Shown: positions 38,729 to 55,865, counted from the stretch's first letter. The stretch: 55,865 nt of DNA from a bacterium (GCA_046727075.1 JBKPBY010000182.1:1-55865); one strand, 5' to 3'. Made by a program: numbers and translations. The notes: generated by a model from the letters alone, not told the origin.

Positions 38729-38740
38729 GTACCAGGGAGA

Positions 38741-38998
38741 TCAATGAGACTGGGCGCTAACCATCCGGTGTTTAGCATCCAGCTGTTTACACGAACGCAC
38801 GATCATGAAAGTCATGCCGGTGAGGAGCAAGACGACGAACCCGATCATAAAAAGCACGCTCAGCGAAAAACCTGCGCTGATGCCCGAAACGCCGCCGTCA
38901 CCTGCCACATTGGAAGGTTCCTTGCATCCAGGGCATGCGAACAGCGACGGCGCGAAACCGAGAAACAGCGCACTGAGCAGCGACAAAAACCTCACCAT
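38741..38998 (-). CDS. Small membrane protein with CxxC
   Basis: Signal peptide ending LFA, then CPGC, then one TM helix; directly downstream of SCO. Confidence 0.7.
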   Translation of the reverse strand: MVRFLSLLSALFLGFAPSLFACPGCKEPSNVAGDGGVSGISAGFSLSVLFMIGFVVLLLTGMTFMIVRSCKQLDAKHRMVSAQSH

Positions 38999-39011
38999 GA
39001 AATAGTTTGAA

Positions 39012-39647
39012 TTATCTTCCGCCCCGACGCAAGAGACTTCCGACATCAAGCAGCAGCTTCTGCACGACCTCCTCAGAAGTTCCGTCGTAATAGCCCCGAA
39101 TGACGCCGTCTATATCGACCAGCGCGAATTTTGTGCTGTGGATAAAATTTGGCATCACGCTCCCCGGATCCTGTACGGCGAGTTGGAAGCCGTTGATCGC
39201 CAAATCATAAATCTGTTGTTTCTCCCCGGTCAAAAAATGCCAGCGATTGGATGCTTCATATCGTTGGGCGTACCGGCTGAGCACAGATGAAGTGTCGAAT
39301 TGTGGATCGACGGTAAACGAGACCAAGGCGAGGGAACTGCCCTTGGAGAAATTGCGATCGAGCTCGGCGAACCGGCTGCTCATGATCGGACATGGTCCAG
39401 GGCACCGCGTGAAGAAAAAGTCCGCGACCCAGACTTTACCTTTAAGAGCGTCCTTCGTCACAGTCTGACCAGTCTGATCAACGAACGAAAAGTCAGGGAC
39501 TGTGTTGAATCGTTCGAAATCCTTGATGAATCTCTGCTGCGCAGATTTCCAAGATTGATACCCGAACGCGAGGACGACAATCGCAATGGTTGCAATGAGT
39601 GCTCCAAGCAACCCCTGGCGAAAACTAGGCTGAGCGACCGATACCAT
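39012..39647 (-). CDS. SCO1/SenC copper chaperone
   Basis: FFFTRCPGPCP, TVDP..D, WHFLTG and HSTKFALVD; start MVSVAQ. Confidence 0.93.
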   Translation of the reverse strand: MVSVAQPSFRQGLLGALIATIAIVVLAFGYQSWKSAQQRFIKDFERFNTVPDFSFVDQTGQTVTKDALKGKVWVADFFFTRCPGPCPIMSSRFAELDRNFSKGSSLALVSFTVDPQFDTSSVLSRYAQRYEASNRWHFLTGEKQQIYDLAINGFQLAVQDPGSVMPNFIHSTKFALVDIDGVIRGYYDGTSEEVVQKLLLDVGSLLRRGGR

Positions 39648-39656
39648 GGTCAGAAA

Positions 39657-39794
39657 TCGGTAAACCGTAGCCGGCAGTCCGTAAACCGTAATCGGTAGTC
39701 CGCAAACCGTAATTGTCATCCCTAAGCCCTGATCCGCCAAGTGGCGCACGTTTTCGGAGCGAACACGGATTACGGAACACGGATTACGGATTAC
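39657..39794. repeat. Inverted pair of heptamer arrays (CCGTAAW vs ACGGATT)
   Basis: cggtaaa ccgtagc..ccgtaaa ccgtaat.. at 39657-39714 and acggatt acggaac acggatt acggatt at 39764-39794. Confidence 0.75.
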
Positions 39795-40211
39795 CTATTC
39801 ACGGGCCGCAGGTGGAGCGCCGCTCAGGCTCTTCTGGACAATTTGGATCAATTGTTCAGGCAAGAACGGTTTTTGCAGGAAGAGAGAACCTTCTCGCATT
39901 TTGAGGCCGTTCGCGTCCTGATAAGCCGGCGAACCGCTGGTATAGACGATTTTCAGGCTCGGCTTGCGCGCCGCCAACTCGTCGGCTAGCCGGATGCCGT
40001 CCAACCCGTCTTGCATGACGATATCGGTGAGCAACAAATCGATCTGTCCATTGCTCTCGTCCCAAACCGCGAGCGCTTGAGATCCTGAGGCAGCTTCCAG
40101 GACTTGATAGCCGGACCGCAGGAGGATGACGCGGTACAATTCTCGCAGTGTTGGTTCATCTTCGACGAGCAAGATCCTCTCAGAGCTGCTATCGATGAGG
40201 TTGGAGTTCAT
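39795..40211 (-). CDS. Single-domain response regulator receiver
   Basis: ILLVEDE, DLLLTDIVM, TSG and LQKPF. Confidence 0.9.
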   Translation of the reverse strand: MNSNLIDSSSERILLVEDEPTLRELYRVILLRSGYQVLEAASGSQALAVWDESNGQIDLLLTDIVMQDGLDGIRLADELAARKPSLKIVYTSGSPAYQDANGLKMREGSLFLQKPFLPEQLIQIVQKSLSGAPPAARE

Positions 40212-40446
40212 ATTTAGCCCCGCCCGAAACGGCGATAAGGCTCAAATTGCACAACAGGAGCAAGTTACTTTTTTCGGGATTTAGAACACTGCTGTCAAGG
40301 ATTCGTTAGAAATGAGTGTAAATTTTATTAACAACCAAATTTTTCCCAACCATAAGAAATTGGGTCTTTTAGACGCGGGATTTCACGATTATAACTACTT
40401 TTTCAGGCGCTTTACAATTGTTTGTCGTACAATTGGTTTTGTAACA

Positions 40447-40468
40447 ATAGGATACCAGGGTATCCTAT
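40447..40468. promoter_or_regulatory. CsoR/RcnR-family operator
   Basis: Perfect palindrome ATAGGATACC-AG-GGTATCCTAT, 3 bp before the repressor ATG. Confidence 0.85.
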
Positions 40469-40471
40469 GCA

Positions 40472-40750
40472 ATGGCCCATATCTCGCGAGATAGAAAAAA
40501 GCTTCTCGATCGGGTTCGGCGTCTTCAGGGACAGATCACCGCTCTCTACAAGGTTCTGGAAACCAAAGACGATTGTACCGAAGTATTGCATCTCTTAGCC
40601 AGTTGCCGCGGGTCGATGAGCAGCCTGATGCATGAGATCGTGGAAGGACATATCCGTTTCCACCTTATGACGAATGATTCCGGAAAGACTCGTCAGCAAG
40701 AAGAAGCGGCCGAGGAACTAATCGAAGTGCTGCGAAAGTATTTGAACTGA
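40472..40750 (+). CDS. RcnR/DmeR-type metal-sensing repressor (CsoR/RcnR/FrmR family)
   Basis: RVRRLQGQI; His3, Cys35, His60 and His64 at the same positions as the Ni/Co ligands of E. coli RcnR. Confidence 0.92.
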   Translation: MAHISRDRKKLLDRVRRLQGQITALYKVLETKDDCTEVLHLLASCRGSMSSLMHEIVEGHIRFHLMTNDSGKTRQQEEAAEELIEVLRKYLN

Positions 40751-40767
40751 AACATCCGGAGCATTTC

Positions 40768-42789
40768 ATGAAGTTGCAAACCAAGGACACCCAGGGAACC
40801 CCAGCCATCGCAAGACTCGATAGAGTATCTGCAGCGCAGGCTGGAAAGCTGGACGAGCATGGCCATCACGGTTACCACGATGATCACGATCACGATCATG
40901 ATCACGACCATAACCATGACGGCCATGATCATGAAACTGACGCGGCCGAGTATGTCCGGCTCGCTGCGATGGGGTTGATCATTGTCGCGAGCCTGACCGG
41001 CTGGTGGCGCGGCCTCATGGATCGCGATTGGCTGGCTTTTGCCGGAACGCTGATTGGCGGACTCCCAATCTACCGAGAGGCTTGGGAGAATCTGCGCAAG
41101 CGACGAATGACCATGGAGCTTTCAATGACCATTGCTCTGGTCGCAGCGCTGCTCATTGGTCAGTTTTTTACGGCGCTGGTAATCGCGTTTTTCGTCTTGT
41201 TCGCCGAACTCCTGGAAGGCTACACAACAGGTGGCGGACGACGCGCTATCGAAGCACTGGTCAATGCGCTACCCCGACAGGTCACGGTCCGGCGCAACGG
41301 AGTCGATAGCCATATAAAAACCGAGGAGCTTTCGGCCGGCGAGATCATCGTGATTCGGCCAGGCGAAAGGATCCCGGTCGATGGCTCGGTTACAAAAGGC
41401 AGCAGTTACGTCGATCAGTCAGCGATCACAGGGAAATCGTTACCGGTTGAGAAGACGGAACTGAGCAAAGTCGTCGCCGGATCGATCAACAAAAGCGGTG
41501 TCCTGGAGGTCAGCGTTGAGCGGATTGGACGCGACACGACCTTCGGCCGGATCATCGAGATTGTCGAGCAGGCGGAGAAATCGAAAGCACCGGTGCAAGG
41601 GATTGCAGATCGTCTGGCGGCGGGCCTCGTCTACTTCGCCTTTGGAGCAGCGGTCCTGACATTTGTAGTTACGCGCAACGTTACCTCTACCATCGCTGTG
41701 ATCATCGTCGCGGGCGCTTGTGGAGTCGCTGCCGGCACGCCTCTAGCCATTCTAGCCGGAATTGGAAGTGCAGCTCGACGCGGGATCATTGTCAAAGGAG
41801 GCCTCTTCCTGGAAAAACTGGCAGAGATCGATACGATCGTTCTGGACAAGACTGGGACACTGACGATGGGCGTTCCCGAAGTGACCGCCATCCGAACAAC
41901 CAACGGAGCTACGGAACAGAATCTCCTGGAGACGGCCGCAATTGTTGAACAGCATTCGGAACATCCATTAGGTGAAGCGATTGTTCGAAAAGCTAAGGCA
42001 GCAAACTTGGCCTTACGTGGATACACTGATCTTCGCTATTCCCCGGGCAAGGGGCTGACATGTCTCGATGGCACAAGCAAAATTGTAGTCGGAAGCCGGC
42101 CCCTGTTGGAGGAGAATGGAGTCGACGGCCTGGATGGCCTCGAAAAGGATTCAGCACGAGGAGAAACCCTTGTTCATGTGGCAAGAGACCGGAAATATCT
42201 GGGCGCGCTTGCAATCGCCGATCAACTCCGGCAGGAATCACTTCAAGCCGTTGCTGAGCTGAAACGACGCGGGTACTGGACCCTGCTTTTGACCGGGGAC
42301 AGCAAAGAAACAGCATCGGCGATCGGCGACCAACTCAAGGTGGATGAGGTTTTTGGTGAGCTTCTTCCTGAGGACAAACTGGACAAGGTCCGCGCACTCC
42401 TTAAAGCCGGCCGGAAAGTGGCAATGGTCGGCGATGGAATCAATGATGCTCCAGCCCTGGCAGAGGCAACCGTAGGCATCGCGATGGGAGGAGGGACGGA
42501 TGTCGCGCTGGAAACCGCCGATGTCACGCTGATGACCAGTGATTTGTCCCGTCTTCCTGAGGTGTTCGATAGCGCCAAACGCTGCTACCGGGTGATCATG
42601 TTTAATTTCTGGGGAACGATCCTGGTTGACACTGTTGGTATTGTGTTGGCCTTCTTCGGTTTGCTGGCTCCGGTCATCGCAGCGCTCATACACGTTGGAT
42701 CGGAGCTGACGTTCATTTTGAATTCGGCGCGCTTGTTTGGCGCAAAGATAAGACGTATGGGACGTATAAGTCCAATGCGAGAGTGTTAG
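40768..42789 (+). CDS. Heavy-metal P1B-type ATPase with His/Asp-rich N-terminus
   Basis: PGERIPVDG, DKTGT, SEHPL, TGD and GDGINDAPAL; (HD)n tract. Confidence 0.95.
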   Translation: MKLQTKDTQGTPAIARLDRVSAAQAGKLDEHGHHGYHDDHDHDHDHDHNHDGHDHETDAAEYVRLAAMGLIIVASLTGWWRGLMDRDWLAFAGTLIGGLPIYREAWENLRKRRMTMELSMTIALVAALLIGQFFTALVIAFFVLFAELLEGYTTGGGRRAIEALVNALPRQVTVRRNGVDSHIKTEELSAGEIIVIRPGERIPVDGSVTKGSSYVDQSAITGKSLPVEKTELSKVVAGSINKSGVLEVSVERIGRDTTFGRIIEIVEQAEKSKAPVQGIADRLAAGLVYFAFGAAVLTFVVTRNVTSTIAVIIVAGACGVAAGTPLAILAGIGSAARRGIIVKGGLFLEKLAEIDTIVLDKTGTLTMGVPEVTAIRTTNGATEQNLLETAAIVEQHSEHPLGEAIVRKAKAANLALRGYTDLRYSPGKGLTCLDGTSKIVVGSRPLLEENGVDGLDGLEKDSARGETLVHVARDRKYLGALAIADQLRQESLQAVAELKRRGYWTLLLTGDSKETASAIGDQLKVDEVFGELLPEDKLDKVRALLKAGRKVAMVGDGINDAPALAEATVGIAMGGGTDVALETADVTLMTSDLSRLPEVFDSAKRCYRVIMFNFWGTILVDTVGIVLAFFGLLAPVIAALIHVGSELTFILNSARLFGAKIRRMGRISPMREC

Positions 42790-43857: not shown

Positions 43858-44076
43858 ACCGTCCTTGGGCAGCGAAACTAGACCCGGTACAGATCAGGTT
43901 CGAGTCTGGGGGGTTACGTCGGGTTGAGATTGCGTCTTTTAAGTGCAGACGGTTCGGCGACGGGTGTTATTCGAGAGAAAGAGCGGGTTACGCAACTGAT
44001 ATCAGCTTCCAGCTCGACATTTATAGCAGCTCGGCACGTTACAGATGTCGGCGGCAGGGCCTGCCGCCCTATAGCA

Positions 44077-44676
44077 TCACACGATATAAAGAATCGTGAA
44101 CAGAAACACCCAGACGATATCGACGAAGTGCCAGTAAAGACCTGTGCACTCGAGGAATCCATGTTTCTGAGGTGTTACGTGACCCATCAGTGCTCGAATC
44201 AACGAGGCAATCAGAAGGAAAACACCGATCAGCACGTGGCAGCCGTGGAATCCCGTGAGCACGAAGAAACAGGAGCCCATGATGCCAGCAGTATTAAACC
44301 AGAATCCTTCATGATGGAGATGGATCCACTCGAGCGCCTGATTGGTAAGGAACAATGAACCGAGAACGATCGTGGCTAACAAAAGAAGCTTGCCGCCTTT
44401 ACCTCGTTTAATCAGTGCGGCCTCCGAGAAATGCAGCGTAAAACTGCTGCTGATCAGAAAGATCGTGGCGATGATCGTTTTGACCATTGTGTCGCCACCC
44501 CTCAGCATTTCCGGCATTTGCCACCCTGGCCCGGCTCCGCCACGAAGCACCATGTAACCACCGATTAGTCCGGCGAACAGCATCGCTTCAGAGGCTAGAA
44601 ACGTCAGCATTCCGAACCGCACGATGTTCGGTCCTGGTTTTTGAATCTCGTCGAAGGTGGTTGCTGTGGCTTCCAT
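44077..44676 (-). CDS. ctaE: Cytochrome c oxidase subunit III
   Basis: FLASEAMLFAGL, LTGFHGCHV and YWHFVDIVW. Confidence 0.93.
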   Translation of the reverse strand: MEATATTFDEIQKPGPNIVRFGMLTFLASEAMLFAGLIGGYMVLRGGAGPGWQMPEMLRGGDTMVKTIIATIFLISSSFTLHFSEAALIKRGKGGKLLLLATIVLGSLFLTNQALEWIHLHHEGFWFNTAGIMGSCFFVLTGFHGCHVLIGVFLLIASLIRALMGHVTPQKHGFLECTGLYWHFVDIVWVFLFTILYIV

Positions 44677-44678
44677 AG

Positions 44679-44795
44679 TTAAATCTTTTGATAGATCGAT
44701 AGTTTCCAGAGGATTACGAGTAAGGTCAGCAGAATCGCAAAAGTGACCAATGCGATCCAGAGGCGCCGATTCCTTCTTCGTAGTTCTTCATCCAT
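44679..44795 (-). CDS. 38 aa single-TM protein (CoxF-like)
   Basis: MDEELRRRNRRLWIALVTFAILLTLLVILWKLSIYQKI*; TAATG overlap with the cyoE stop and ends 2 bp before ctaE. Confidence 0.75.
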   Translation of the reverse strand: MDEELRRRNRRLWIALVTFAILLTLLVILWKLSIYQKI

Positions 44796-45688
44796 TACGC
44801 TCGAGTCAATACAAGGGCGCCCAACGTGATCGGTAGATAAACAATTGAAGCGACGAACAGGCGCCGCGCAGTTTTCTCAGATCCGTGGAACGCAAATTGG
44901 AGCGACATCCAGCCAAAATAGATACCGGTCGCGGCCGCGATTACGAAATACCAGACCGTAGTCAGCCCTGCCATTGCCGGCATCAAGCTAACGGAGATCA
45001 AAGCCATTGTATAAAGCAGACCCTGACGGCCAATCATTGCGGCACTTTGATCCGTGCCGCCCAGCATGACAAAACCTGCTTGCTTGTAATCTTCTCGGAA
45101 CAACCACGCGAGCGCGAGAAAGTGAGGCATCTGCCAGAGGAATAGAATTGCGAACAGAAGCCATGCTTCAAAATCGATTCGCCCGCGCGCTGCCACCCAT
45201 CCGATCACTGGAGGCAGCGCACCGGGTAAAGCACCCACAATTGTGTTCAAGGTAGTTACCCTTTTGAGCGGTGTGTAAACAAAGACGTACGAACCGATGG
45301 TGCCCGCCGCAAGAACACCGGCCAGCAGATTAGTCCCCAGTGCAAGCCACAGAATGCCGGCGATCGAACAACCGACACCGATGATCATTCCTTCTTCCAC
45401 GCTCATTCGGTGCGAAGGCAACGGTCGGTTTCGAGTCCGTCGCATGCGGGCATCAAATTCGACCTCAAACACCTGATTCAGGGCAGCTGCCCCGGCGGCG
45501 GCAAGGGCGGTGGCGAACAATGTCTGCAAAAGGTACGGGACGTTCATCTCTCCGCGCCACCCAAACAGGAATCCGATCAGCGTCGTGCTGAGCACGAGCA
45601 GAGAGAGGCGAGCCTTCACGAGCTCGGCAATATCCGAGACCAATCGGCGGACTTGCGAATTAGGATTATTGGCTAAAACCGTGCTCAT
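44795..45688 (-). CDS. cyoE: Protoheme IX farnesyltransferase (heme O synthase)
   Basis: DARMRRTRNRPLP, YTPLKR, GALPPVIGW and WQMPHF. Confidence 0.95.
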   Translation of the reverse strand: MSTVLANNPNSQVRRLVSDIAELVKARLSLLVLSTTLIGFLFGWRGEMNVPYLLQTLFATALAAAGAAALNQVFEVEFDARMRRTRNRPLPSHRMSVEEGMIIGVGCSIAGILWLALGTNLLAGVLAAGTIGSYVFVYTPLKRVTTLNTIVGALPGALPPVIGWVAARGRIDFEAWLLFAILFLWQMPHFLALAWLFREDYKQAGFVMLGGTDQSAAMIGRQGLLYTMALISVSLMPAMAGLTTVWYFVIAAATGIYFGWMSLQFAFHGSEKTARRLFVASIVYLPITLGALVLTRA

Positions 45689-46719
45689 GCTCTGCTCACC
45701 GCGATATGATCGATCTCTCCCACCGGCGTGGTGGCTCTCCACAACAACCTGGAAAGCGAAACGCTCAACAATACGCCTGTCACCAAAGTGAGAGCACCTA
45801 CAAGAACATGCGCTGTCGCGACATCTGCCGCCTTGTTGCTCCAAACAGTCCAGGCTCCTAACCCAACCTGTACGATCACCAAACCGATCCACCCGGCCGC
45901 CGCAAACCGAATTGGGCCGAGCAAATGCGGTTGCCGCAACAGCCGTGTTGCGCTTCGAATCACTTCAATTGAAATACAAAGTGCCAAGAACCGATGAATG
46001 TACTGAAGCCAAATCAAGCCCGCGGTGATTGGCTGTTGCGCGGGTGATCGGACGGCGTTGATTCTTGCGATCGCATCAGATGTTGATGGGGGAAAAAGGC
46101 CGCCATATACGGTTGGGAAGTCAGGGATCGAGAGTCCGCTATGGGAGTGACGCATGGCGGCACCCAAAGCCAATTGCACGAAGATGGCCACAGTCAGCGC
46201 GATCGCTGAGATCCGGCTCTTGCGCAAGATGGAATCACCAGGTTCGACCGATGCTATCGCCTTCCAGAAACGTGAGTTTACTAAAGCAATCGTCGCTACA
46301 AGCGCAAAAAAGCTCTGGGCCAGGCAAGCGTGAAAGAGACCAAGCACCGGATTGTGTTCAGTTACCCGCAAACCGCCTAGAACGCCTTGGGTCACTACAG
46401 CTAGCACGGCGATGCCGGACATCCATTTTACCCACGGCCGTTCTTCAATCATCAGTGTGACTGCACACAAAACGAGCGTGAATAATCCAACGGTGCTCGC
46501 GATCAACCGATGCGTGTGCTCGTAGAAAATTCCGCCGATCCACTTTGACACCGGGAACAGAAACATGTTGTACCCGAAACTGTTCGGCCAATCTGGAACC
46601 GCCATTCCTGCTTCATGGCTGGTAACCAGCCCGCCGCTACAGATCAAAACCAGGACGGCGACGGCAACGAAAATCGAATACCAATGAAGAAGCCGCTTTG
46701 GCAGATCGATCGCGGACAT
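45685..46719 (-). CDS. ctaA: Heme A synthase (COX15/CtaA)
   Basis: GMAVPDWP, EHTHRL, QGVLGGLRV, H..LAQ and HRFLA. Confidence 0.93.
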   Translation of the reverse strand: MSAIDLPKRLLHWYSIFVAVAVLVLICSGGLVTSHEAGMAVPDWPNSFGYNMFLFPVSKWIGGIFYEHTHRLIASTVGLFTLVLCAVTLMIEERPWVKWMSGIAVLAVVTQGVLGGLRVTEHNPVLGLFHACLAQSFFALVATIALVNSRFWKAIASVEPGDSILRKSRISAIALTVAIFVQLALGAAMRHSHSGLSIPDFPTVYGGLFPPSTSDAIARINAVRSPAQQPITAGLIWLQYIHRFLALCISIEVIRSATRLLRQPHLLGPIRFAAAGWIGLVIVQVGLGAWTVWSNKAADVATAHVLVGALTLVTGVLLSVSLSRLLWRATTPVGEIDHIAVSRA

Positions 46720-48491
46720 TAGTGAGCCTCAATCCTCGCAGTCTCAGGCGCAGGCTGATCTTGCGGTAAATAATCCTGGTCTATGCCCGGGACGCTATAT
46801 TCATAAGGACCATGGTAAACCGTTGGCGTCTTCTCGAAATTCCCATGTCCTGGAGGTGACGGCAGCGTCCACTCTAATGTCGTGGATTGCCACGGATTCT
46901 TTGGTGCCTTGGGGCCTTTGAACATACTGTAGAAGAAATTGATCAGAAACGGGATAGTCGAGAGACCGAGCATGAACGCGCTGATCGAGATAAAGACATT
47001 GACCGGCTGCTGACTACGCAAATGGTCGTACTGGGTCGGATCTGCGATTCGGCGCATCATTCCATTCAACCCAAGGTTGTGCATCGGGAAGAAGGTGCAG
47101 TTGAAGAAAATGAAGGCTAAGGCGAAGTGAACTTTGCCCCAAAACTCGCTCATCATGCGACCGAACATTTTCGGAAACCAGAAATAGATCCCGCCGAACA
47201 CTCCGAACAGACTGCCGCCAAACAGAACGTAGTGGATGTGGGCGACGATGAAGTAGGTGTGGTGGATGAAGATGTCCACAGGTGTCGCAGCCATGTAAAT
47301 CCCACTCAAGCCGCCAATCACGAACATCGAGACGAAAGCCAAGGCGAAACACATCGCCGTCGTGAAACGGACTGAGCCGCCCCAGACCGTTCCCATCCAG
47401 TTAAAGGTTTTGATGGCAGAGGGCACCGCAATCAGCATGGTCGAAAACGAAAACGTCGCGGAAAGCAAGAGATTCATTCCGCTGACGAACATGTGGTGTC
47501 CCCAAACAATGAAGCCGAGGAAAGCGATCGCTCCCATCGCCCACACCATCGCTTTGTATCCGAACACCGGCTTACGCGAGTTTACAGCAATGATCTCCGA
47601 CACCAGACCCATCGCCGGCAACATCATGATATAAACTTCCGGGTGACCGAAGAACCAGAACAGGTGTTGCCACAGCAACGGTTGTCCGTAGTTGCTCGAT
47701 GCGAAGAAAGTTGTACCAAAGTTCAGATCGAAGAAAAGCATCGCCGCGGCCGCCGAAAGAACTGGGACCGCCAACAGTAATAGAAACGCCGTGATAAGCA
47801 GCGCCCAGACCGGCAACGGCAACCGGAACATCGTCATACCGGGAGCGCGCATGTTGATGGTTGTCGTGATGTAATTCATCGCGCCGGCGATCGATGCGAG
47901 TCCGTTGATGAACAAGCCGACACACCAGAGGCTCTGTCCCCATTGCGTGCCGTTGTAGTTGGCGTGAGAGGAGAGCGGCGCATACGAAGTCCAGCCTGAA
48001 GCCGGGAACCCGCTCGGCACGAAAAAGCTGGAAAGAATAACGATGCCGGACAGCAAGAAGAGCCAGAAAGAAAGCGCATTGAACCAGGGGAACGCCATGT
48101 CCGGGGCACCGATCTTCAACGGAATCAGGAAGTTGCCAAAAACACCGATCAGCAGCGGCATGATGACAAGGAACACCATGACCGTCGCATGCATGGTGAA
48201 CAGTCCGTTGTATCCCCCCGGTTGAATTGCGCCCTGCGGGGTCACCAGCCAGCTCGGCAACAGATGACCAATTATCGGCACGGGAACGTTCGGGAACGCC
48301 AGCTGGAACCGGACCGCCATAGCCAACAGACCACCAATTAAAAGAAAGAATAGACTGGCAAACAAGTACTGCATCCCGATGGTCTTATGATCCTCGGACC
48401 AGATGTACTTGCTGAAAAAGCTTAACTCCGGATGATGCGCGTGGTGTTCGTGCGCTTCTCCGGGAGCAACGTGAGCGATTGTCTGTGCCAT
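46719..48491 (-). CDS. ctaD: Cytochrome c oxidase subunit I, type A1
   Basis: DHKTIG, FTMHAT, DMAFP, FWFFGHPEVY, WGHHM and AHIHY; all six His ligands present. Confidence 0.97.
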   Translation of the reverse strand: MAQTIAHVAPGEAHEHHAHHPELSFFSKYIWSEDHKTIGMQYLFASLFFLLIGGLLAMAVRFQLAFPNVPVPIIGHLLPSWLVTPQGAIQPGGYNGLFTMHATVMVFLVIMPLLIGVFGNFLIPLKIGAPDMAFPWFNALSFWLFLLSGIVILSSFFVPSGFPASGWTSYAPLSSHANYNGTQWGQSLWCVGLFINGLASIAGAMNYITTTINMRAPGMTMFRLPLPVWALLITAFLLLLAVPVLSAAAAMLFFDLNFGTTFFASSNYGQPLLWQHLFWFFGHPEVYIMMLPAMGLVSEIIAVNSRKPVFGYKAMVWAMGAIAFLGFIVWGHHMFVSGMNLLLSATFSFSTMLIAVPSAIKTFNWMGTVWGGSVRFTTAMCFALAFVSMFVIGGLSGIYMAATPVDIFIHHTYFIVAHIHYVLFGGSLFGVFGGIYFWFPKMFGRMMSEFWGKVHFALAFIFFNCTFFPMHNLGLNGMMRRIADPTQYDHLRSQQPVNVFISISAFMLGLSTIPFLINFFYSMFKGPKAPKNPWQSTTLEWTLPSPPGHGNFEKTPTVYHGPYEYSVPGIDQDYLPQDQPAPETARIEAH

Positions 48492-48507
48492 GACGGTATT
48501 CCTACAA

Positions 48508-49482
48508 CTATTTGGTCCGCGCCGGCGGGGGAGGGTTATTGGCAGGCGGCGGCGCTACCTTCTCTATATACCATTTGTCGAAATCTGCCTGGGACACAAC
48601 TTGAACCTGCGCCTTCATATTGTAGTGCCCGGAGCCGCAAAGCTGATTACAAGCAAGCTGATATGAACCGACTTTGGTCGGAATAAACCAGACCCAATCG
48701 ATCGTACGGCCCGGAATAATGTCCTGATAAACGCGGAACTCCGGAATGTAGAAGGCATGGATCACGTCTCGTGAATTCAAGCGAATCCTGACCGGCTTAT
48801 TGACGGGCAGCTCAAGGACACCAGATTGAAAGTTCTGCTTGGTTAAAGGATCGTTCGGGTCATTCCCAAAGATGTTTTCATTAGAGATCAACTTCGGGTC
48901 GGAACGCCCAAGTTTCCCGCTCGGGCCGGGGTACTGGAAGCTCCATCCGAACTGGTAAGCGAGCGTCCCGATTTCCATCGCATCCTGTGGGGGATCTGTG
49001 TGAATCACATTCCACCAGAGGTGATTGCTGTAACCCCAAAGGCCGAGAAAGATAAGCGTCGGGATAATTGTCCAAACGAACTCCAGCCGATTGTTACCGT
49101 GGCTGTAGATCGCTTTGATACCCTTACGGGCGCGATATTTGACCAGGAAATAAATGTAAACAATCTGCGTCAGCACAAAAACGCCGCCCGTCAGGTAGTA
49201 GATAAAGTACATCAGCTCATCGATCCGCTTACCGTGCGCGCTGGCAACGTCGGGTACCCACCAAAGATCCGAAGTTCGCGGAGCTGCGTGGACAGACAGG
49301 CTCAGACCAACAATGAAAAGCAAGGTCAAAACAACAATCGTCCACGAGCGGCAGGGCCGAGCTTTATCTCGACCTTCTCGGGCTGCTACATCGACGAGGT
49401 CGCGATGACCTGTCCGCCATAGCCTGGGCGACGGCGGAATCGCAGCCCTATCGACGCTGTTTGACATTGGGGAATTCATCAT
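48508..49482 (-). CDS. ctaC: Cytochrome c oxidase subunit II
   Basis: HGNNRLEFVWT, QFGW, DVIHAF and CuA motif CNQLCGSGHYNM; start uncertain. Confidence 0.93.
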   Translation of the reverse strand: MMNSPMSNSVDRAAIPPSPRLWRTGHRDLVDVAAREGRDKARPCRSWTIVVLTLLFIVGLSLSVHAAPRTSDLWWVPDVASAHGKRIDELMYFIYYLTGGVFVLTQIVYIYFLVKYRARKGIKAIYSHGNNRLEFVWTIIPTLIFLGLWGYSNHLWWNVIHTDPPQDAMEIGTLAYQFGWSFQYPGPSGKLGRSDPKLISNENIFGNDPNDPLTKQNFQSGVLELPVNKPVRIRLNSRDVIHAFYIPEFRVYQDIIPGRTIDWVWFIPTKVGSYQLACNQLCGSGHYNMKAQVQVVSQADFDKWYIEKVAPPPANNPPPPARTK

Positions 49483-50219
49483 GGTTTCGCTGGTGCCCCT
49501 TGCGCAGGGGGTGGTGGTGACGATCCGGGAGGGGCCGGTTGTCCGGCGGGAGCGGCCGGCTTACCTGGCGCAGCCGGAGCTCCCGGCTTCTGGCCCTGCT
49601 GGGCAGCGCCTCCGCCGGTCAGGTCCTGGGGAGGAATTTTCTCTACTTCGGGCCATGTCCATTGCTCTTTTCGATCTTTAAACTGATCGCGCATTTGCTT
49701 CACCATGTCGGCTGTGATCGGAGGCGCGTTGTTCCCCCAGTCAGACCGCACATAGGTCAAAATAGAGGCGAGCTGTTGATCTGAATACTGACCCTCCCAG
49801 GCCTGCATCGAGTTGTTGAAAGCTTTTCCTTTGATCTGGACCGGCCCCTGCAAGCCCTTCAGCACAATCGCAATCAGATGGTTCGTGGCGTTGCCCAGAA
49901 CAACTTCCGAGCCGGCCAACGGCGGATACTGCCCTTCCAGGCCCTGACCAGTCACCTGATGGCATGTGATGCAGTTAGATGAGAAAAGCGCTTTGCCAAC
50001 GACCTTCGGGTCGACCGTGGTCTTTCCCCCAACTTGAGCGCCATATTTGGGTTCGTAATCAAAAACATCCGGCTTAAAGCCGCCGCTATAGGTGAACAAA
50101 TAGGCGCCCGCCCAAAACACGCCAAGGCCAACTAGTCCCATCAGCCAGACAGGGACTGGAGCCGATCCTATCTCGGGTGCAGATGCTGTACTCTCGTCTG
50201 TCCTGCTATGGTCGCTCAT
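49479..50219 (-). CDS. Membrane-anchored monoheme cytochrome c
   Basis: TM helix, CITCH, YPPLAGS, distal Met and Pro/Ala tail. Confidence 0.9.
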   Translation of the reverse strand: MSDHSRTDESTASAPEIGSAPVPVWLMGLVGLGVFWAGAYLFTYSGGFKPDVFDYEPKYGAQVGGKTTVDPKVVGKALFSSNCITCHQVTGQGLEGQYPPLAGSEVVLGNATNHLIAIVLKGLQGPVQIKGKAFNNSMQAWEGQYSDQQLASILTYVRSDWGNNAPPITADMVKQMRDQFKDRKEQWTWPEVEKIPPQDLTGGGAAQQGQKPGAPAAPGKPAAPAGQPAPPGSSPPPPAQGAPAKP

Positions 50220-50830
50220 TCTGTCGGTTCTGGCGCCTCCGGTAAGGCGTAGTTTCTCTTCAGGGAAAGCAGATAATCAACCAGGGCCTTTCCATTCTCC
50301 GTGGGCACAACTTCATAGCCGGGAGGTGGCGCATCTGCTCCGTCAAGTTTGACCGCATCCAGGGACGGCTGGCCAACAATCTTCTGGGTCCGGAACAGCC
50401 ACTTGTAAGCTGGCATCGCTGACTCCGGATGAGCTGCGTAGAGGTAACGGTAAAACCACTGGGGGTCAGTCTGGCGCACGCCCACATTCGTAAGATCTGC
50501 TCCGAGTCGTGAAGTCCCTAAGAAGACTTGCCGATCGTACAAGTAGTCGCGCGCTACTGTCCGGCGCTTACCCCATTCGCGATCGATATCGCTTCCTTCG
50601 TTTTTGTCACGGACGAATTGGCTGTGGCAATAGATGCACCCATTGGATGCATATACGTGGTAGCCTTGCTCCGCAATGCCTGGTTTTGCCGGAGGCGCTA
50701 CCTCTTGCGTATTCGGATCCTTATTCGGCTGCAGCCCAGCAAATGTCAGGTACGGATATGCGACAAATCCGAGCCACGAAACGCCAAAGGCACCGAATAC
50801 TCCGAAAAACAATTTCACGAACTTATTCAA
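50216..50830 (-). CDS. CcoO/FixO-like monoheme cytochrome c
   Basis: GCIYCHSQFVR, GTSRLGADLTNVG and SAMPAY. Confidence 0.88.
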   Translation of the reverse strand: MNKFVKLFFGVFGAFGVSWLGFVAYPYLTFAGLQPNKDPNTQEVAPPAKPGIAEQGYHVYASNGCIYCHSQFVRDKNEGSDIDREWGKRRTVARDYLYDRQVFLGTSRLGADLTNVGVRQTDPQWFYRYLYAAHPESAMPAYKWLFRTQKIVGQPSLDAVKLDGADAPPPGYEVVPTENGKALVDYLLSLKRNYALPEAPEPTE

Positions 50831-52290
50831 GCGACACTCACCTCCGGCAGAGATTCTTTCGAAGATTCGGCAGCGGGTTCCTGCGGACGTACCCGAGTCG
50901 GAAGCAGCAGAATCAGTTTCACCGCCGCCGCGAAGCTGATGTTGGCCACAAAAATGAGCAGAACGGCGACGTTTTGTACGAGTAAGAATGGCTGAATCAG
51001 ATCGTTGATTGCATCCATTGAAATCTTCGAATCCTGAAGAGCGAACCCTTGAATTGCGCCTCCAATCACCAGATCAAAGCCGATCATGCCGAGTCCAACT
51101 ACGTTGAACCAGAGATGCGTTTTAGCCAGCCAAGGATACTGCCAATCCCGGCCCAGCAACCTCGGTACGATCAGATAGAGAGCGCCAAACAGAATCATGC
51201 TGCAAAAGGCGATGAGTCCAAGGTAGCGGTGGCCCGCCGATACAAAGGTGAATTGCGCAAGGTGGCCGAATGTTCGGAACGACAGTAATGCTCCCAGGCT
51301 ATTCCAGACCATGTAGGCAAAGCCGCCAAACAATAGGAAACGCAACGGCAGATGCCATCGCAAATCTTCGAAGCTATCCCGGACGGTAAGATGAAAGTTG
51401 AGAGCGGCGGCAATAACTGGAATCAGCATCAATACATTCGCTACGACGCTGGCAGTAATCGTCCAGGCTGGTAGCGGGCCGCCCATCCCGTGTATCAAGC
51501 CTGTCCAACCGCCAAAAATGGCCGTTCCCCAGAATCCAACTAAGGCAAGCCGGTAACTGTAGACCGGCTTCCCGGCGATTTTGGGAAGAAAATAGTAAGA
51601 AGCGGCTAGTGCAATCGGCGACAACCAAAGCTGCATGAGCGCGCCGCAGAACCACCAGTGAATAGCCGACTGTGCGACTCCCGGTATCTGGAACGGATTC
51701 AACAATGCGCTCGCTGTCGCGTACATCCATGGGAACCATAGGAATGCACCGACCAGATACCATTGAGAAACATAGGTCGCTCCAGGCTCCCGATGGACGA
51801 ACATCGATACCGCCCAGAACCCGATAATCAAAAGCGCGAGAAAAAGTATGAACGCTACAGGGCCGGGAAATTCGAGCATTTCTTTTCCGTTACCGTTCCC
51901 GGCAAGAATCGATAATATGCCGAGCCCGACGCCTACGTTCCAAAGGACCGCCCCAACAATCGGCAGTGAAGGTCTTCGCAACGGAGTGCCACAAAGTTTC
52001 GCCAGGAGCCACAGCCCAACACCAATGCCGGCGCCTGATGCCCAGCCGTAGACCATGCAATTCAGAAAGACTGGATAGCTGCGGCCGAAGCTCAGCCAAC
52101 CGATTCCCGGTAGCGCCCACCAGGCCTCAGGCGTGTACATTTGAGAGACGTTGAGCAGCCAGAAGAGCGATCCAAGCGCCAGCCAAAAGGCCGCAGCTCC
52201 AAACAAAATCAGGACCGGGACCCGGATCGATCGTTCAACCGAATCGGTCGGTTCTTGCAACAAACGAATCTGTTGGTTCATCGCACTCAC
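50827..52290 (-). CDS. CcoN/FixN-like membrane subunit with degenerate metal ligands
   Basis: WLSFGR, GKEMLE, YVSQWY, YYFLPK..GKPVYSYRL, LPAW and H.W align to CcoN; most His ligands replaced. Confidence 0.85.
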   Translation of the reverse strand: MSAMNQQIRLLQEPTDSVERSIRVPVLILFGAAAFWLALGSLFWLLNVSQMYTPEAWWALPGIGWLSFGRSYPVFLNCMVYGWASGAGIGVGLWLLAKLCGTPLRRPSLPIVGAVLWNVGVGLGILSILAGNGNGKEMLEFPGPVAFILFLALLIIGFWAVSMFVHREPGATYVSQWYLVGAFLWFPWMYATASALLNPFQIPGVAQSAIHWWFCGALMQLWLSPIALAASYYFLPKIAGKPVYSYRLALVGFWGTAIFGGWTGLIHGMGGPLPAWTITASVVANVLMLIPVIAAALNFHLTVRDSFEDLRWHLPLRFLLFGGFAYMVWNSLGALLSFRTFGHLAQFTFVSAGHRYLGLIAFCSMILFGALYLIVPRLLGRDWQYPWLAKTHLWFNVVGLGMIGFDLVIGGAIQGFALQDSKISMDAINDLIQPFLLVQNVAVLLIFVANISFAAAVKLILLLPTRVRPQEPAAESSKESLPEVSVA

Positions 52291-52679
52291 GGTTTAGACC
52301 CTTGAGGTGCAGCAGGAGCCGCTGGACTGGCTGCGGGCTGCGCCGCATTCGGCGCCGGTGTCGCAGCCGGAGCAGGAGTAGCTACGGGGCCCGCTGCATG
52401 AGGTTTATTTGCTTTGAGATCGGCCAGCACCAGGTCCATCGCGCGATCAATCGGAATTCCAACGATGCCCTTCGATTTATCAATCCACCGGTACTGGGTT
52501 AATATTTTTTGGTTCTCTGCGTTCAAGTCGGCGAGGATCTTAAGCCGCTCTTGCTTCCTGACATCCTCAACGGTCGGGATGCTTTGGCGCTGCCAGACAA
52601 GTAAAGCCGCCAGCACGGCGAACAACAGGACAATGATCAGGCCTGTGAATGTTCCTCTTTTTTGGCGTTGTTCAGTCAT
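52287..52679 (-). CDS. ActG-like small subunit
   Basis: One TM, LTQYRWIDKSKGIVGIPIDRAM; follows actF. Confidence 0.7.
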   Translation of the reverse strand: MTEQRQKRGTFTGLIIVLLFAVLAALLVWQRQSIPTVEDVRKQERLKILADLNAENQKILTQYRWIDKSKGIVGIPIDRAMDLVLADLKANKPHAAGPVATPAPAATPAPNAAQPAASPAAPAAPQGSKP

Positions 52680-52681
52680 GC

Positions 52682-53914
52682 TTAGTTACTCAGTTTCAGC
52701 GATTCCAGCAGTCGCGGGTCACGCGTCGGGAATAGCGAGGCGCCGCTTAGCCGTACCAGGAAAATGAAGGCGAGAGGACAACCGATCGCTAATAAAGAAA
52801 GCAGATCGAAAACGCTCACCTGAAATCCGGCCGGATGCATAAATGGGAGAACGATGACGTAGAGATCCAGAATATGCATCGCGAGCACCCAGAAACAGAT
52901 CGGGACCAGGAAAGGGGTGTTTCGCTTGTTGTACTGGAACAGGAGATAGAGAAACGGGATGAAGAACCGTCCCACCACCAGCGCAGTACTCAAGGTATGC
53001 CAAGAACCGATGTTCCGTCGCAGGAACCAAGTGGTCTCTTCAGGGATATTACTATACCAGATCAGCATGTACTGGCTGAACCCGATGTAACCCCAGAAGA
53101 TCGAGAACGTGAACAGCAACTTACCCATGATGTGGTAGTGCTCTTCGTTCACAAACGCCAGGTAGCCGGCTTTCTGGAGAGCGAACACAACGATGATGAG
53201 CAACGCCATGCCGGCGCCAGCCGCGCCTGCAAAAACGTAGACGCCCCACATGGTGGATGCCCAGTGATAATCCAAAGATGAAAACCAATCGAACGCGGCA
53301 AGAGTCATCAAGGCCGCGAAAAGCAAAAGGCAAACAAACGACACACCCCGCATCTGGATCGAGCGCTTCGGATCTCCATCTGTATCCTGCCGCACAGACA
53401 TCCGCCGGAAGTAAAAGGTCGCAAACGTAAAAAAGAAGAAGTAAAGCACTGCCCTCAGCCAGAAAAACGGGATCGTTACGGTGCCAAACTGCAGGACGAA
53501 ATAACCGAGCTTGTCCCTAAGGGAAGGATCTTCACTCGGGTGTTTCAACGCTGCGATCCAGCTCCACAAATCATGCCGGAACAATATGACTGGTATGAAG
53601 AACAAGAAAACCCAGGGCAAAATTGTCGCCAGATTTTCCATCTGCCGCCGAACCACGATCCCCCAGCCTGAGTCTGTCGTGTGATGCACTAGAATCCAGA
53701 AAAAGACTCCGGCCAGCATTGTAAAAAAGTAGAGGAACCCGAACAGCCAGGAAAAAGCAACTTGGCGACGCAGTTCGCTGCCCTGCGGCGCCATGAATCC
53801 GGCCGCCAGCGCGACCACCAGCGAAATCCCGCCGACAGCAAGTAACACAAAGAAAACTCTTCCAAGGTTGCGTCCTTCAAACCTCTCTGCGCTGGGAATA
53901 GTGATCGATCTCAT
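52682..53914 (-). CDS. actF: Alternative complex III subunit ActF
   Basis: W..VVRRQME, DWFSSLDYHWASTMWG and SQYMLIWYSNIPEET. Confidence 0.9.
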   Translation of the reverse strand: MRSITIPSAERFEGRNLGRVFFVLLAVGGISLVVALAAGFMAPQGSELRRQVAFSWLFGFLYFFTMLAGVFFWILVHHTTDSGWGIVVRRQMENLATILPWVFLFFIPVILFRHDLWSWIAALKHPSEDPSLRDKLGYFVLQFGTVTIPFFWLRAVLYFFFFTFATFYFRRMSVRQDTDGDPKRSIQMRGVSFVCLLLFAALMTLAAFDWFSSLDYHWASTMWGVYVFAGAAGAGMALLIIVVFALQKAGYLAFVNEEHYHIMGKLLFTFSIFWGYIGFSQYMLIWYSNIPEETTWFLRRNIGSWHTLSTALVVGRFFIPFLYLLFQYNKRNTPFLVPICFWVLAMHILDLYVIVLPFMHPAGFQVSVFDLLSLLAIGCPLAFIFLVRLSGASLFPTRDPRLLESLKLSN

Positions 53915-53920
53915 ATCTCG

Positions 53921-54670
53921 TCAATGCGCTGCTGGTGCGGGCGAAGCCGCCGGTTGAGGTTGGTTCGGTTGCGCAGCCGCTTCCGCTTGCAGTGCTGCTC
54001 GTTTATCCGGGGGCACGTCCTCTAATCGCGCGTATTCGCTCTTCTGAAGCGTCCGAATGTAAGCGATGATTGCCCAGCGGTCTTTCACCGTCACCTTGTC
54101 TGCGTACGGCATCATCGTATTGAACCCATTGGTGATCGTATTGAAGATCTGCCCATCCGCCATGGTCCGATACTTGTCCTGATGGTAATTGGCGATGCTG
54201 TTGAGGCCGTGTTTCGACGTGATTCCGTTACCCTGCCCTGTTGCTCCGTGGCAGACGGCACAATCGATCGAATAAACCGCCTGACCGCGCTTCAAAAGGT
54301 CCGGCGTAACCGGTAACGGTATGCCTGTTCCCCAATTGTTGCCCATCTTTCCGGTATTGTAGTAGTCGGTGCCAGCGGAGAATTCACCCAGCGGCGAGTC
54401 AATATGCGTTGCCGGATCCGGCACATCGGAGTTTTGCGTCACATGCCCTGGAATATCGTATCCCATTGGGATCGTGCCTTCGACCGGAGGACGGGCGCCG
54501 CGACCGTCAGCGAAGAATGCGCTCGGTTTCTGGTATTTGATTTTGTCCTGTCGCTTCATATCGCCGAAGAACTCGATTGCCGGCACAGGACGATGCTGCC
54601 CCTGGAACCCCAGCAGTGCTACGGTGATAATCGATAGAAGCAGGAAGACGATCAGGAAATTCTTAATCAT
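53921..54670 (-). CDS. actE: Alternative complex III monoheme cytochrome c ActE
   Basis: DMKRQDK, RPPVEGTIP, CAVCHG, DGQIFNTITNG..MM and DRWAII.YIR.LQ. Confidence 0.88.
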   Translation of the reverse strand: MIKNFLIVFLLLSIITVALLGFQGQHRPVPAIEFFGDMKRQDKIKYQKPSAFFADGRGARPPVEGTIPMGYDIPGHVTQNSDVPDPATHIDSPLGEFSAGTDYYNTGKMGNNWGTGIPLPVTPDLLKRGQAVYSIDCAVCHGATGQGNGITSKHGLNSIANYHQDKYRTMADGQIFNTITNGFNTMMPYADKVTVKDRWAIIAYIRTLQKSEYARLEDVPPDKRAALQAEAAAQPNQPQPAASPAPAAH

Positions 54671-55226
54671 TTTCGTAAAGCACGGTCACGCCCTGACCGC
54701 CGATCTCTTCCAGGAAGTCGCGAGTTCCGGTCTCAGAAAACTTCGGGTCGACTGACTCGATCACGAGGAAAAACGCGTCGTTGGAAAACTCCTTGAAACG
54801 TTCGAAATCAAAAAGCGGATGATGATACCGCGGCAGCCGGTTCAGGATGAAAACACCAAAGAAAGCGGTGAACGCCGAGAACAAGATGGTCAGCTCGAAC
54901 ATGATTGGGAAAAACGCTGGAACCGTAAAGAAGTTCACCGGCTTCCCGTGAACGATGAGGGGATAAAGAAACGATGAGGGAATGTATTCCAGCGATACGG
55001 CTGTAAGGAATCCGGTCAGACCGCCACAGAAAATGATGTAGCCAAGCGGCGATCTTCTTAGTCCCATCGCTTTGTCCATTCCGTGGATTGGAAACGGCGA
55101 GTGGCAATCCCAGAACTTGAACCCTTTATCCCGCACTTTCTCCGCGGCGTCGTAGAGGGCGGCAGCGCTGGAAAATTCCGCAATTACACCCCAGGCCGTT
55201 TTTTTTGCAGCAGCGGCAGCACTCAT
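54663..55226 (-). CDS. actD: Alternative complex III subunit ActD (DUF3341)
   Basis: [21 protein letters not shown] and [10 protein letters not shown]. Confidence 0.9.
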
Positions 55227-55865
55227 GCGTGTACCTCCTTCGGTGATTCTTGTCCGCCGTCAGAGGGCGGGTGATAATGAGGATCCGCTTCCGGGAGCAC
55301 ACCTTTCACTTCTGAGATCGCCACCATCGGCAAAAACCGGATAAAGAGCAGGAAGAGCGTAAGAAAGATTCCGTGAGATCCAATGAAAGTGAATACATCG
55401 ACCCAGGTCGGATGATACATACGCCAGGCGGACGGTAAGAAGTCGCGGTGCAGCGAGATCACAAAGATAACGAACCGCTCGAACCACATACCGGCGTTTG
55501 CGCACATCGCGACGAAAAACACCACAACAACATTCCGCCGAAACGCGCGCACCCACATGAGCTGTGGCATGACAACGTTACAGGCGAACATCGACCAGGA
55601 AGCCCACCAATAAGGACCGAAGTAGCGGTTCAGGAATGCAAATCGTTCAAATGGGTTAGCGCCATAGAATGCAACAAAGATCTCCATGGTATAGGCGTAC
55701 CCGACGATCGATCCGGTCAGTAGCAGGATTTTGCACATCACATCGATGTGATTCCAAGTGACGACGTCATGCAGCTTATAGAGCGATCGCGCCGGTATCA
55801 TGAGCGTTAACACCATGGCGAATCCGCCGAAGATCGCGCCTGCGACGAAGTAAGGCGGGAAAATC
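55223..55865 (-). CDS. actC: Alternative complex III subunit ActC (NrfD family), 3' part
   Basis: [20 protein letters not shown] and [20 protein letters not shown]; runs off the window. Confidence 0.92.

Follow-up and report, generated by a model that had tools for sequence, protein, structure and literature searches.

A cbb3-type catalytic subunit stripped of cofactor ligands and maintained by purifying selection behind the alternative complex III genes of a soil Verrucomicrobium

The window analysed here is one whole contig of 55,865 nucleotides (GCA_046727075.1, JBKPBY010000182.1; C182), belonging to the 3.1-Mb, 69.85% complete assembly of a soil Verrucomicrobium. A single string of minus-strand genes runs from position 55864 down to 44077, in which the genes of an alternative complex III (ACIII) are followed by those of a CcoN-like protein, a CcoO-like protein and a cytochrome c, and then by those of an aa3-type oxidase. 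The CcoN-like protein, a homologue of the catalytic subunit of cbb3 oxidases, lacks four of that enzyme's six histidine ligands and its cross-linked tyrosine, and the gene is maintained as a dead homologue under purifying selection, rather than decaying. We regard the case as evenly balanced that it is a pseudo-oxidase, descended from an ACIII-linked cbb3 oxidase, whose present role would be to support, within the membrane, a heme-c relay leading to the aa3 oxidase.

The segment at 49479-52290 consists of three minus-strand open reading frames (ORFs) with four-base overlaps between them. The CcoN-like gene (50827-52290, minus strand; PF00115, 138.1 bits against a cut-off of 34.8) is an ORF of 487 amino acids with a GTG start; as the initial annotation of this DNA had stated, it is full length and overlaps its neighbours. 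That annotation had also read the ligand motifs by eye, and a phmmer alignment to Pseudomonas stutzeri CcoN (PDB 3mk7_A; 103.5 bits, E 1.1e-28) reproduced every motif pair, with no gaps around them. In P. stutzeri numbering, we take H60 and H347 to be the low-spin heme b ligands, H345 the proximal histidine of the high-spin heme b3, and Y251 the cross-linked tyrosine, roles reportedly described by Buschmann et al. in 2010. In the window, FGRLRPLHTN reads FGRSYPVFLN, replacing H60 with F75; WWYGHN reads WWFCGA, replacing H207 with G216; YIWAGPHH reads GGWTGLIH, replacing Y251 with G260 and H257 with I266, while H258 is kept as H267; and GHVH reads GHRY, keeping H345 as H354 and replacing H347 with Y356. 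The claimed loss of four histidines and the tyrosine is therefore borne out in a gap-free alignment: neither low-spin heme b ligand is present (F75 and Y356), G260 stands in place of the tyrosine, and only one of the three CuB ligands remains (His207, His257 and His258, as numbered in an excerpt of PMC3578206). The protein scores 124.7 bits with TIGR00780, the CcoN equivalog model, against a cut-off of 583.15.

This loss is no alignment slip, because the flanking motifs anchor the columns without gaps (FGR..P, WW[YF], W.G....GGP and FT......LG..F are gap-free in all 25 rows shown), and 33 of 80 related loci read HHYHHHH in the same seven columns. Nor is it peculiar to the window. Among 121 close relatives (the query and the best 120 of 215 matches from a word-indexed protein search, of which the named members among the matches listed were mostly 'cbb3-type cytochrome c oxidase subunit I' of Verrucomicrobia or Chthoniobacterales), the H60 column holds Phe in 112, the H207 column Gly in 111, the Y251 column Gly in 105, the H257 column Thr in 105 and the H347 column Gln in 96. 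Histidine persists at the H258 column in 81 and at the H345 column, that of the heme b3 ligand, in 77, the latter being absent from most genera of the window's family. A comparison of 42 liganded with 30 stripped sequences, treating positions as conserved if shared by at least 95% of the liganded forms and as kept if the same residue occurs in at least 80% of the stripped forms, identified 192 conserved positions, of which 85 were kept and 69 lost in the stripped forms. The lost positions comprise all of the ligands, their neighbours R72, N217 and N263, and several polar positions, whereas those kept are mainly Gly, Pro, Trp, Tyr and Phe, plus polar or charged residues, with E140, R167, R241, N298, H300, R317, R377, H392 and Q414 conserved in all classes. 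The 15 positions whose conservation is confined to stripped forms include no His, Met or Cys, and no substitute set of ligands emerged. As far as its sequence indicates, the CcoN-like protein probably binds no cofactor.

The loss of ligands has not been accompanied by loss of the fold or of the reading frame. An AlphaFold model built on a 41-row alignment (pLDDT 89.2, pTM 0.89) has twelve long helices, matching the 12-helix fold of CcoN, and in a Foldseek search seven CcoN chains ranked first (TM 0.86-0.91, rmsd 2.1-3.0 Å; the best matches including 9g6b_A, 3mk7 and 8smr_E, at 2.1-2.7 Å), with NorB and ba3 chains lower. Against a same-genus genome in which the protein is 90% identical, the gene has a dN/dS of 0.063 at a dS of 0.81; its neighbours have values of 0.041 (CcoO-like gene), 0.023 (cytochrome c) and 0.055 (ActF). 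Three further pairs inside the stripped clade gave CcoN values of 0.131, 0.096 and 0.142, with dS across stripped pairs of 0.6-1.1, while five fully liganded pairs gave 0.029-0.074 for CcoN. The values for ActF were 0.033-0.096. Constraint on the stripped sequences is thus perhaps up to twofold weaker, yet strong. No stop codon or frameshift was found in 29 genome copies, taken from ten genera of the window's family and nine other families. Furthermore, the stripped clade has diverged to 38% identity while the window's protein still models as a confident fold, and an intact frame at that distance speaks against a neutral relic, as neutral decay that far would have broken it. The combination that defines a pseudoenzyme was therefore observed: catalytic residues are lost, selection is purifying, and the frame is intact across the clade.

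The origin of the gene is indicated by related loci. Of the 565 loci confirmed by tblastn in a genome scan using one genome per species, the best 80 were analysed (the ligand pattern of one, L042, was read from the tblastn frame), and 67 of these had at least 2.5 kb of sequence upstream. ActC-D-E-F-G preceded CcoN, and CcoO and a cytochrome c followed it, in 63 of these 67. Three ligand classes could be distinguished. All seven residues are present in 33 of the 80 loci, with two more near-complete; a partial class of 37 reads HN[SA][QT]RY[YH] or close to it, having lost the CuB ligands, the tyrosine and the heme b3 histidine while often keeping the heme b histidines; and eight are fully stripped, like the window. 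ACIII lies upstream in all 40 degenerate (partial or stripped) loci with upstream room, whereas the four loci lacking it are three with HHYHHHH and one near-complete, in one of which a P-type ATPase then follows, as in ordinary cco clusters. The slot after ActG is occupied by a fully liganded CcoN in 22 loci, and by a degenerate one in 40. The initial annotation described the module as inserted between ACIII and the aa3 oxidase, but as the same slot already holds a liganded CcoN in relatives, the window's gene was not inserted; to judge from these sequences, it derives, without having moved, from a working cbb3 oxidase linked to ACIII. Nor is the aa3 oxidase the constant neighbour: in the partial clade it is kilobases away or not in the locus, the operon stopping after the cytochrome c, and the constant linkage of the CcoN-like gene is to ACIII.

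A broader search of 50%-identity representatives returned 1691 matches at E <= 0.001, and 326 at E <= 1e-30. In an alignment of the query with the best 150 of these 1691 (151 rows), all seven residues were present in six rows, one of them N-terminally truncated, and the other rows contained nearly any residue in these columns.

The two degenerate classes differ in how their ligand columns vary. All 20 sampled genomes of the window's family, from ten genera, have a stripped gene, and the residues in the seven columns change between genera, with patterns including FGGIHHY, ANGTNPL, FKATVQH, FNAGLRS, SGATQRY, AGGAQRD and FNASSRS. The partial class, by comparison, has replacements that are themselves conserved (H207 by N, Y251 by S or A, H257 by Q or T, H258 by R, and H345 by Y), such that its site looks remodelled rather than freely decayed, and may possibly hold a Tyr-ligated heme. 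This class includes L024, L029, L034, L053, L064, L066, L079 and 30 others, some labelled Candidatus Udaeobacter; its CcoN match lies at about 10001-11470 in full-length loci, and its CcoO has a median length, from stop to stop, of 357 amino acids, compared with 231 and 213 in the other classes. Separately, locus L005 (CAVWLI010000021.1), labelled 'uncultured Acidobacteriota', has a stripped operon 57% identical to that of the window and groups with Verrucomicrobia loci, and the label of this bin may be wrong.

Of nine other families of the order, seven have HHYHHHH, one HNSQRYH and one ASATSVL. In all 29 genomes checked both ways, the TIGR00780 score separates the classes, with liganded forms at 217-256 bits and degenerate forms at 86-176 bits. 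Across 41 genomes of the window's family, the best CcoN score was 86-176 bits, and four genomes had no match. Order-wide, among 151 genomes, 27 have a canonical fused CcoNO (at least 623 bits), and another 27 have a best score of 196-273 bits (including G163); in 79 no match exceeds 181 bits, and 18 lack any match at E 1e-20. Canonical fused CcoNO, in frames of 780-875 amino acids, occurs together with a low-scoring CcoN (101-173 bits) in G131, G084, G123, G030, G102, G171 and G060; in G131, G084 and G030 the canonical fused cbb3 stands beside a degenerate ACIII-linked copy, and therefore dead and working cbb3 genes can coexist in one genome. Two genomes of the same order, G032 and G062 (about 0.9 Mb, one contig, 99% complete), have no CcoN-type match.

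Phylogenetic analyses, in both of which the seven ligand columns were included, bear on how often the ligands were lost. A FastTree phylogeny of 84 rows, with three fused CcoNO sequences as the root, grouped the partial class with the stripped one inside the liganded forms (SH-like support 97), although with a warning of long-branch effects. An IQ-TREE analysis of 42 rows under a site-mixture model instead recovered the stripped forms (14 rows) as one clade nested among liganded forms (SH-aLRT 97) and the partial forms as another (SH-aLRT 100), with the two placed apart. The branches of the stripped clade are several times longer than those of the liganded forms, with end branches of 0.25-1.67. 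These trees suggest that the ligands were lost at least once, and that two losses are more likely.

The partner subunits keep their heme motifs. The CcoO-like protein (50216-50830, minus strand; 204 amino acids; PF02433 FixO, 60.2 bits against a cut-off of 29.6) is a monoheme cytochrome c in which the features of cbb3 subunit II are all present: an N-terminal membrane helix (a hydrophobic segment at residues 4-25), the CxxCH motif CIYCH, and the axial methionine of PESAMPAY, both aligning to CcoO of PDB 8smr_F. Its score with the equivalog model TIGR00781 is 58.9 bits against a cut-off of 200.65. One CxxCH is found in CcoO at 77 of 78 loci, the exception being a 57-residue fragment at a contig end, and the methionine of MP[AS][YF] is kept in all three ligand classes. 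The third ORF (49479-50219, minus strand; PF00034 and PF13442) encodes a membrane-anchored monoheme cytochrome c of 246 amino acids, with one CxxCH at residue 83, a single such motif being found at 71 of 73 loci. Among solved structures, it most resembles the cytochrome c domain in copper nitrite reductases (72 bits) and Thermus c552 (64 bits), and no CcoP chain was among the matches listed at E <= 0.001.

The aa3 oxidase downstream is intact. CoxII (48508-49482, minus strand; TIGR02866, 158 bits, above the cut-off) has a CuA-type C...C..H..M motif, as read from its sequence, and no fused cytochrome c domain, with no CxxCH in it or in any of 32 CoxII homologues from related loci. CoxI (46719-48491, minus strand; PF00115, 500 bits) keeps the A-family ligand motifs WFFGHPEVY, HHM and HIHY, and aligns end to end with Paracoccus CoxI (PDB 1ar1_A, 461.7 bits), although its TIGR02891 score of 639.8 bits is slightly below the cut-off of 670.75. 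Together with the genes for heme A synthesis, these features identify an A-family aa3 oxidase. The initial annotation was accordingly correct both that the CcoO-like partner keeps CxxCH and Met, and that the aa3 oxidase is intact.

Structural prediction suggests that the CcoN-like protein still binds the CcoO-like protein. The pair scored 0.86, compared with 0.00 for the best of three controls, a mark reached by 116 of 157 solved complexes and by two of 215 mismatched pairs; at least 96% of contacts were shared between runs, and pLDDT was at least 83 for the partner. However, because cbb3 complexes have already been solved, the predicted binding may reflect likeness only.

From these observations, a path for electrons can be proposed. 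The ancestor would have been a cbb3 oxidase encoded directly behind the ACIII genes, taking its electrons from ACIII. In the window's family, with the low-spin heme b ligands, two of the three CuB ligands and the cross-linked tyrosine gone, O2 reduction would have been lost at this site, because those ligands are required, as we infer from what is established for heme-copper oxidases. The 12-helix protein would then serve as a membrane platform, holding the heme c of CcoO, and perhaps the tethered cytochrome c, beside ACIII. Electrons would pass from ACIII through c-type hemes, those of CcoO and the tethered c552-like cytochrome, to CuA of the adjacent aa3 oxidase. The need for a carrier favours this, as CoxII has CuA but no heme c domain, and c552 donates to CuA oxidases. 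More tentatively, we suggest that the catalytic subunit of a working ACIII-cbb3 unit was exapted where it stood, on at least one occasion and probably on two, becoming a structural component of the ACIII machinery that carries no cofactor and makes CcoO and the c552-like cytochrome a fixed electron bridge to aa3. The scaffold or electron-wire adaptor proposed in the initial annotation is still the likeliest inference, and its repurposed pseudo-oxidase stands in so far as the gene is maintained, with a dN/dS of 0.063, a confident fold and a partner that retains its heme motifs, whereas nothing speaks for the sensor or ion channel it offered as further roles. In the survey of syntenic homologues that it proposed, ligand loss is shared by the 20 family genomes and dN/dS is low; 33 of the 80 loci keep all seven residues.

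Several points weigh against the scaffold and relay. Firstly, H354 and H267 are kept in the window's protein, leaving room for one five-coordinate heme, although in close relatives these two columns hold His in no more than 77 and 81 of 121 cases, which weighs against such a site. Secondly, the predicted CcoO interface shows no excess of kept positions (18 of 37, compared with 67 of 155 elsewhere; odds ratio 1.24, p 0.58), and therefore constraint extends throughout the protein, without singling out this contact surface. Thirdly, a role tied to aa3 cannot be general, as aa3 is not adjacent in the partial clade. Fourthly, electron transfer from ACIII to aa3 in Flavobacterium johnsoniae needs no ActE, according to passages of PMC8552683, and therefore an extra relay may not be required. 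Fifthly, in a genome 69.85% complete, a working cbb3 could lie elsewhere, though none scored above 176 bits in 41 family genomes. Finally, the proposed role draws on sequence and models. A search of sequencing runs identified 20 with matching content, mostly from soil DNA, and two soil metatranscriptomes, each matching 0.07 of the words. Contigs from these runs on 44000-55865 (92% likeness) were scattered pieces over the operon, with a depth of 0-2.1 in bins across 50732-52315; being from relatives, and possibly containing DNA, they show neither expression nor silence of the CcoN-like gene.

Other functions for the protein can be weighed against the same evidence. It is unlikely that the CcoN-like and CcoO-like pair has gained a new activity or sensing role, such as a peroxidase-like, NO-binding or ACIII redox-sensing function, using the heme c of CcoO or a heme on His354, instead of being a passive relay. 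The strict retention of the CcoO heme c motif, the survival of H354 and H267 in the window's protein, and the conserved replacements of the sister partial clade (N, S/A, Q/T, R and Y), which resemble a remodelled site, are compatible with this. Yet within the window's family the columns that once held ligands vary freely from one genus to another, unlike those of a defined new site, the H354 and H267 columns are not consistently histidine in close relatives (77 and 81 of 121), the protein carries no signalling domain, and the operon has no conserved regulator.

Less probable still is an ion- or proton-conducting module, or a conformational coupling element of ACIII, that reuses the oxidase's channels without redox chemistry. 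Cofactor-less NrfD-like subunits have already been proposed to mediate proton transfer in ACIII, in passages of PMC5928083. Here, it is the whole 12-helix bundle that is conserved, rather than one face, and the nine polar or charged positions common to all classes, from E140 to Q414, could contribute to such a path. However, the subunit would lack a driving redox centre, and among the changed positions that we take to lie near the active site or on the proton path, mapping to the K-path, the serine of the S240 position is alanine in 97% of stripped forms, and positions 244, 247, 263, 313-315 and 382 are lost. Equally improbable is an assembly or stability factor, a chaperone-like frame that the CcoO-like protein, the tethered cytochrome c or ACIII would need in order to fold or insert, but that would take no part in the finished complex. 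The four-base overlaps that couple the ActG-like, CcoN-like, CcoO-like, cytochrome c and CoxII genes, the predicted CcoO-like binding, and the biogenesis genes nearby (Sco1, DUF420, ResB/CcsA and a P-type ATPase) would all suit such a helper, but a 487-residue membrane protein held at a dN/dS of about 0.1 family-wide is costly for a transient one, and this explanation overlaps with a scaffold and is indistinguishable from it by sequence. Finally, it is very improbable that the gene is a non-functional relic on its way to loss, with constraint only apparent through operon structure or recent inactivation, as although ligands are lost and their columns drift, the stripped clade's branches are long (ends of 0.25-1.67) and its dN/dS is up to about twice that of liganded pairs, no stop or frameshift occurs in 29 copies, full length is kept, dN/dS is 0.06-0.14 at a dS of 0.6-1.1, and a clade at 38% identity still folds confidently.

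The scaffold of a heme-c relay can also be set against known systems. The closest is the CcoN-CcoO(-CcoP) cbb3 oxidase of P. stutzeri (3mk7 and 5djq; also 8smr, 6xkw and 9g6b), which shares the fold, the homology, the CcoO partner and the order of N, O and cytochrome c. The window's protein differs in lacking both heme b ligands, two CuB ligands and the tyrosine, and in being encoded inside an ACIII operon, while its third subunit is a monoheme, c552-like protein rather than the diheme CcoP. The ACIII-linked, liganded CcoN of other Chthoniobacterales (L012 and L030, labelled Chthoniobacter flavus, and L017, Terrimicrobiaceae) occupy the same slot with the same partners at 41-45% identity, and in several liganded-CcoN loci the same aa3 genes follow as in the window. 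They nevertheless read HHYHHHH and score 217-256 bits with TIGR00780, against 86-176 for the window's family; to go by their ligands, they are presumably working oxidases, and the window's protein is not.

In the ACIII-caa3/aa3 supercomplexes of Rhodothermus marinus and F. johnsoniae (6f0k and 6btm), ACIII genes are likewise followed by an A-family oxidase, and the ActF, ActD and ActG-like proteins found in those ACIII are recognisable in the window. For these systems, passages of PMC5928083 and PMC8552683 propose that electrons are handed directly from one complex to the other. Unlike the window, however, they have no CcoN/CcoO module between the two complexes, and subunit II of R. marinus has its own heme c domain, as described in part of PMC5928083, whereas the window's CoxII has none. 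In the bc1-cbb3 assembly of Rhodobacter capsulatus (6xkw), with its membrane-anchored cytochrome cy, tethered c-type cytochromes link the quinol complex to the oxidase (from an excerpt of PMC7876108), but there CcoN is active and the electron sink, while the window's CcoN-like protein could only be a platform.

Within the wider superfamily, the gNOR, nNOR, eNOR and sNOR families also lack the cross-linked tyrosine and do not reduce O2, but keep both hemes and a metal site, whereas the window's protein has lost four of the six histidines. Passages of the 2024 survey of the superfamily by Murali et al. (PMC11214002) describe gNOR as the first member with one active-site histidine replaced, and treat the active-site histidines as conserved in all families but one. 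With four of the six gone and their columns drifting, no redox site is therefore expected in the window's protein. A full-text search of the literature available found no description of a ligand-less CcoN or an ACIII-linked pseudo-oxidase, although specialists may have noticed one earlier. A legend in PMC5492636 mentions PF00115 sequences that form an 'unknown group', with attribution to Muntyan et al. 2015, and this group may bear on novelty.

The genes around this module, all on the minus strand from ActC to CoxIII, are as follows. ActC, an NrfD-like membrane subunit of ACIII, is represented by its C-terminal part (55223-55864; PF03916 NrfD, 28.9 bits), as the contig end cuts the gene; the fragment is 62-90% identical to the gene preceding ActD in related loci. 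ActA and ActB would lie beyond the contig end, and a related locus (L004) has a multiheme cytochrome and a 1085-residue Fe-S protein before ActC. ActD follows (54663-55226; PF11821, 201.5 bits), then ActE, a monoheme cytochrome c with an N-terminal anchor and one CxxCH at residue 137 (53921-54670; PF13442 and PF00034), and ActF (52682-53914; 410 amino acids), which has about ten hydrophobic segments and matches PDB 6f0k_F, the ActF of R. marinus, at 216.6 bits, with no Pfam match in a scan of the window's proteins. Between ActF and the CcoN-like gene lies the ActG-like small subunit (52287-52679; 130 amino acids), which has a single membrane helix at its N-terminus and a tail rich in Pro and Ala, and contains the conserved motif W.DK.KG..RIPI.RAM. 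A profile of 40 of its homologues matches 'ActG' of PDB 8k9e_G (E 0.0016, 21.7 bits), and the protein is therefore assigned to ACIII. Its gene is found in ACIII-linked loci and is unrecognisable beside stand-alone CcoN genes. As a candidate cbb3 subunit it was rejected: BLASTP revealed no counterpart among the small ORFs that precede stand-alone CcoN genes (E 0.9 and 0.053), and Pfam FixQ matched three of the 40 profile members, while the profile matched ActG instead. ActC to ActG thus occur in the order of an ACIII operon within the window, and every neighbouring gene pair from the ActG-like gene through CoxII overlaps by four bases.

Beyond CoxI, the string continues with heme A synthase (CtaA/COX15, 45685-46719; PF02628, 110.4 bits), heme O synthase (CtaB, 44795-45892; TIGR01473, 271.6 bits, above the cut-off) and CoxIII (44077-44676; PF00510, 102 bits). 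A respiratory biogenesis set adjoins the oxidase genes at 33750-42789, comprising genes for CcsA/ResC-like (33750-35759), ResB-like (35678-36832), DUF420 (37458-37949) and SCO1/SenC (39012-39749) proteins, a response regulator (39795-40211) and, in the opposite orientation, a P-type ATPase (40768-42789). Elsewhere, at 5188-18100, are genes for MacB/FtsX-type permeases (5188-7620, 10040-12592 and 14053-16485), with an ABC ATPase (12992-13744) and an HlyD-type protein (16646-18100); the ORFs at 7759-8334 and 8325-9776 look like one further MacB-type gene, split in two.

The proteins studied here carry the name 'cbb3-type cytochrome c oxidase subunit I' in public sources, and the presence of ccoN is commonly read as a capacity for microaerobic respiration, as in a passage of PMC8407424. 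No CcoN match in 41 genomes of the window's family exceeded 176 bits, and for this widespread group of soil Verrucomicrobia such a conclusion would therefore be mistaken. By model score, the degenerate form is the only CcoN-type gene found in roughly one in two of the Chthoniobacterales species sampled, 79 of 151 genomes yielding no CcoN score over 181 bits; lineages labelled Candidatus Udaeobacter are among them. If our reading is true, calls of 'cbb3 oxidase' in these abundant soil bacteria would give no sign of high-affinity O2 respiration. How ACIII hands electrons to an oxidase is still debated, on the evidence of a passage in PMC8552683, and a dedicated, membrane-held heme-c module between ACIII and aa3 would be a new arrangement. 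The loci also form a natural series at one slot, from a working oxidase, through a form that has lost the binuclear centre, to one that has lost the ligands of all its cofactors, which permits a direct test of the parts of an oxidase subunit that serve structure as opposed to chemistry.

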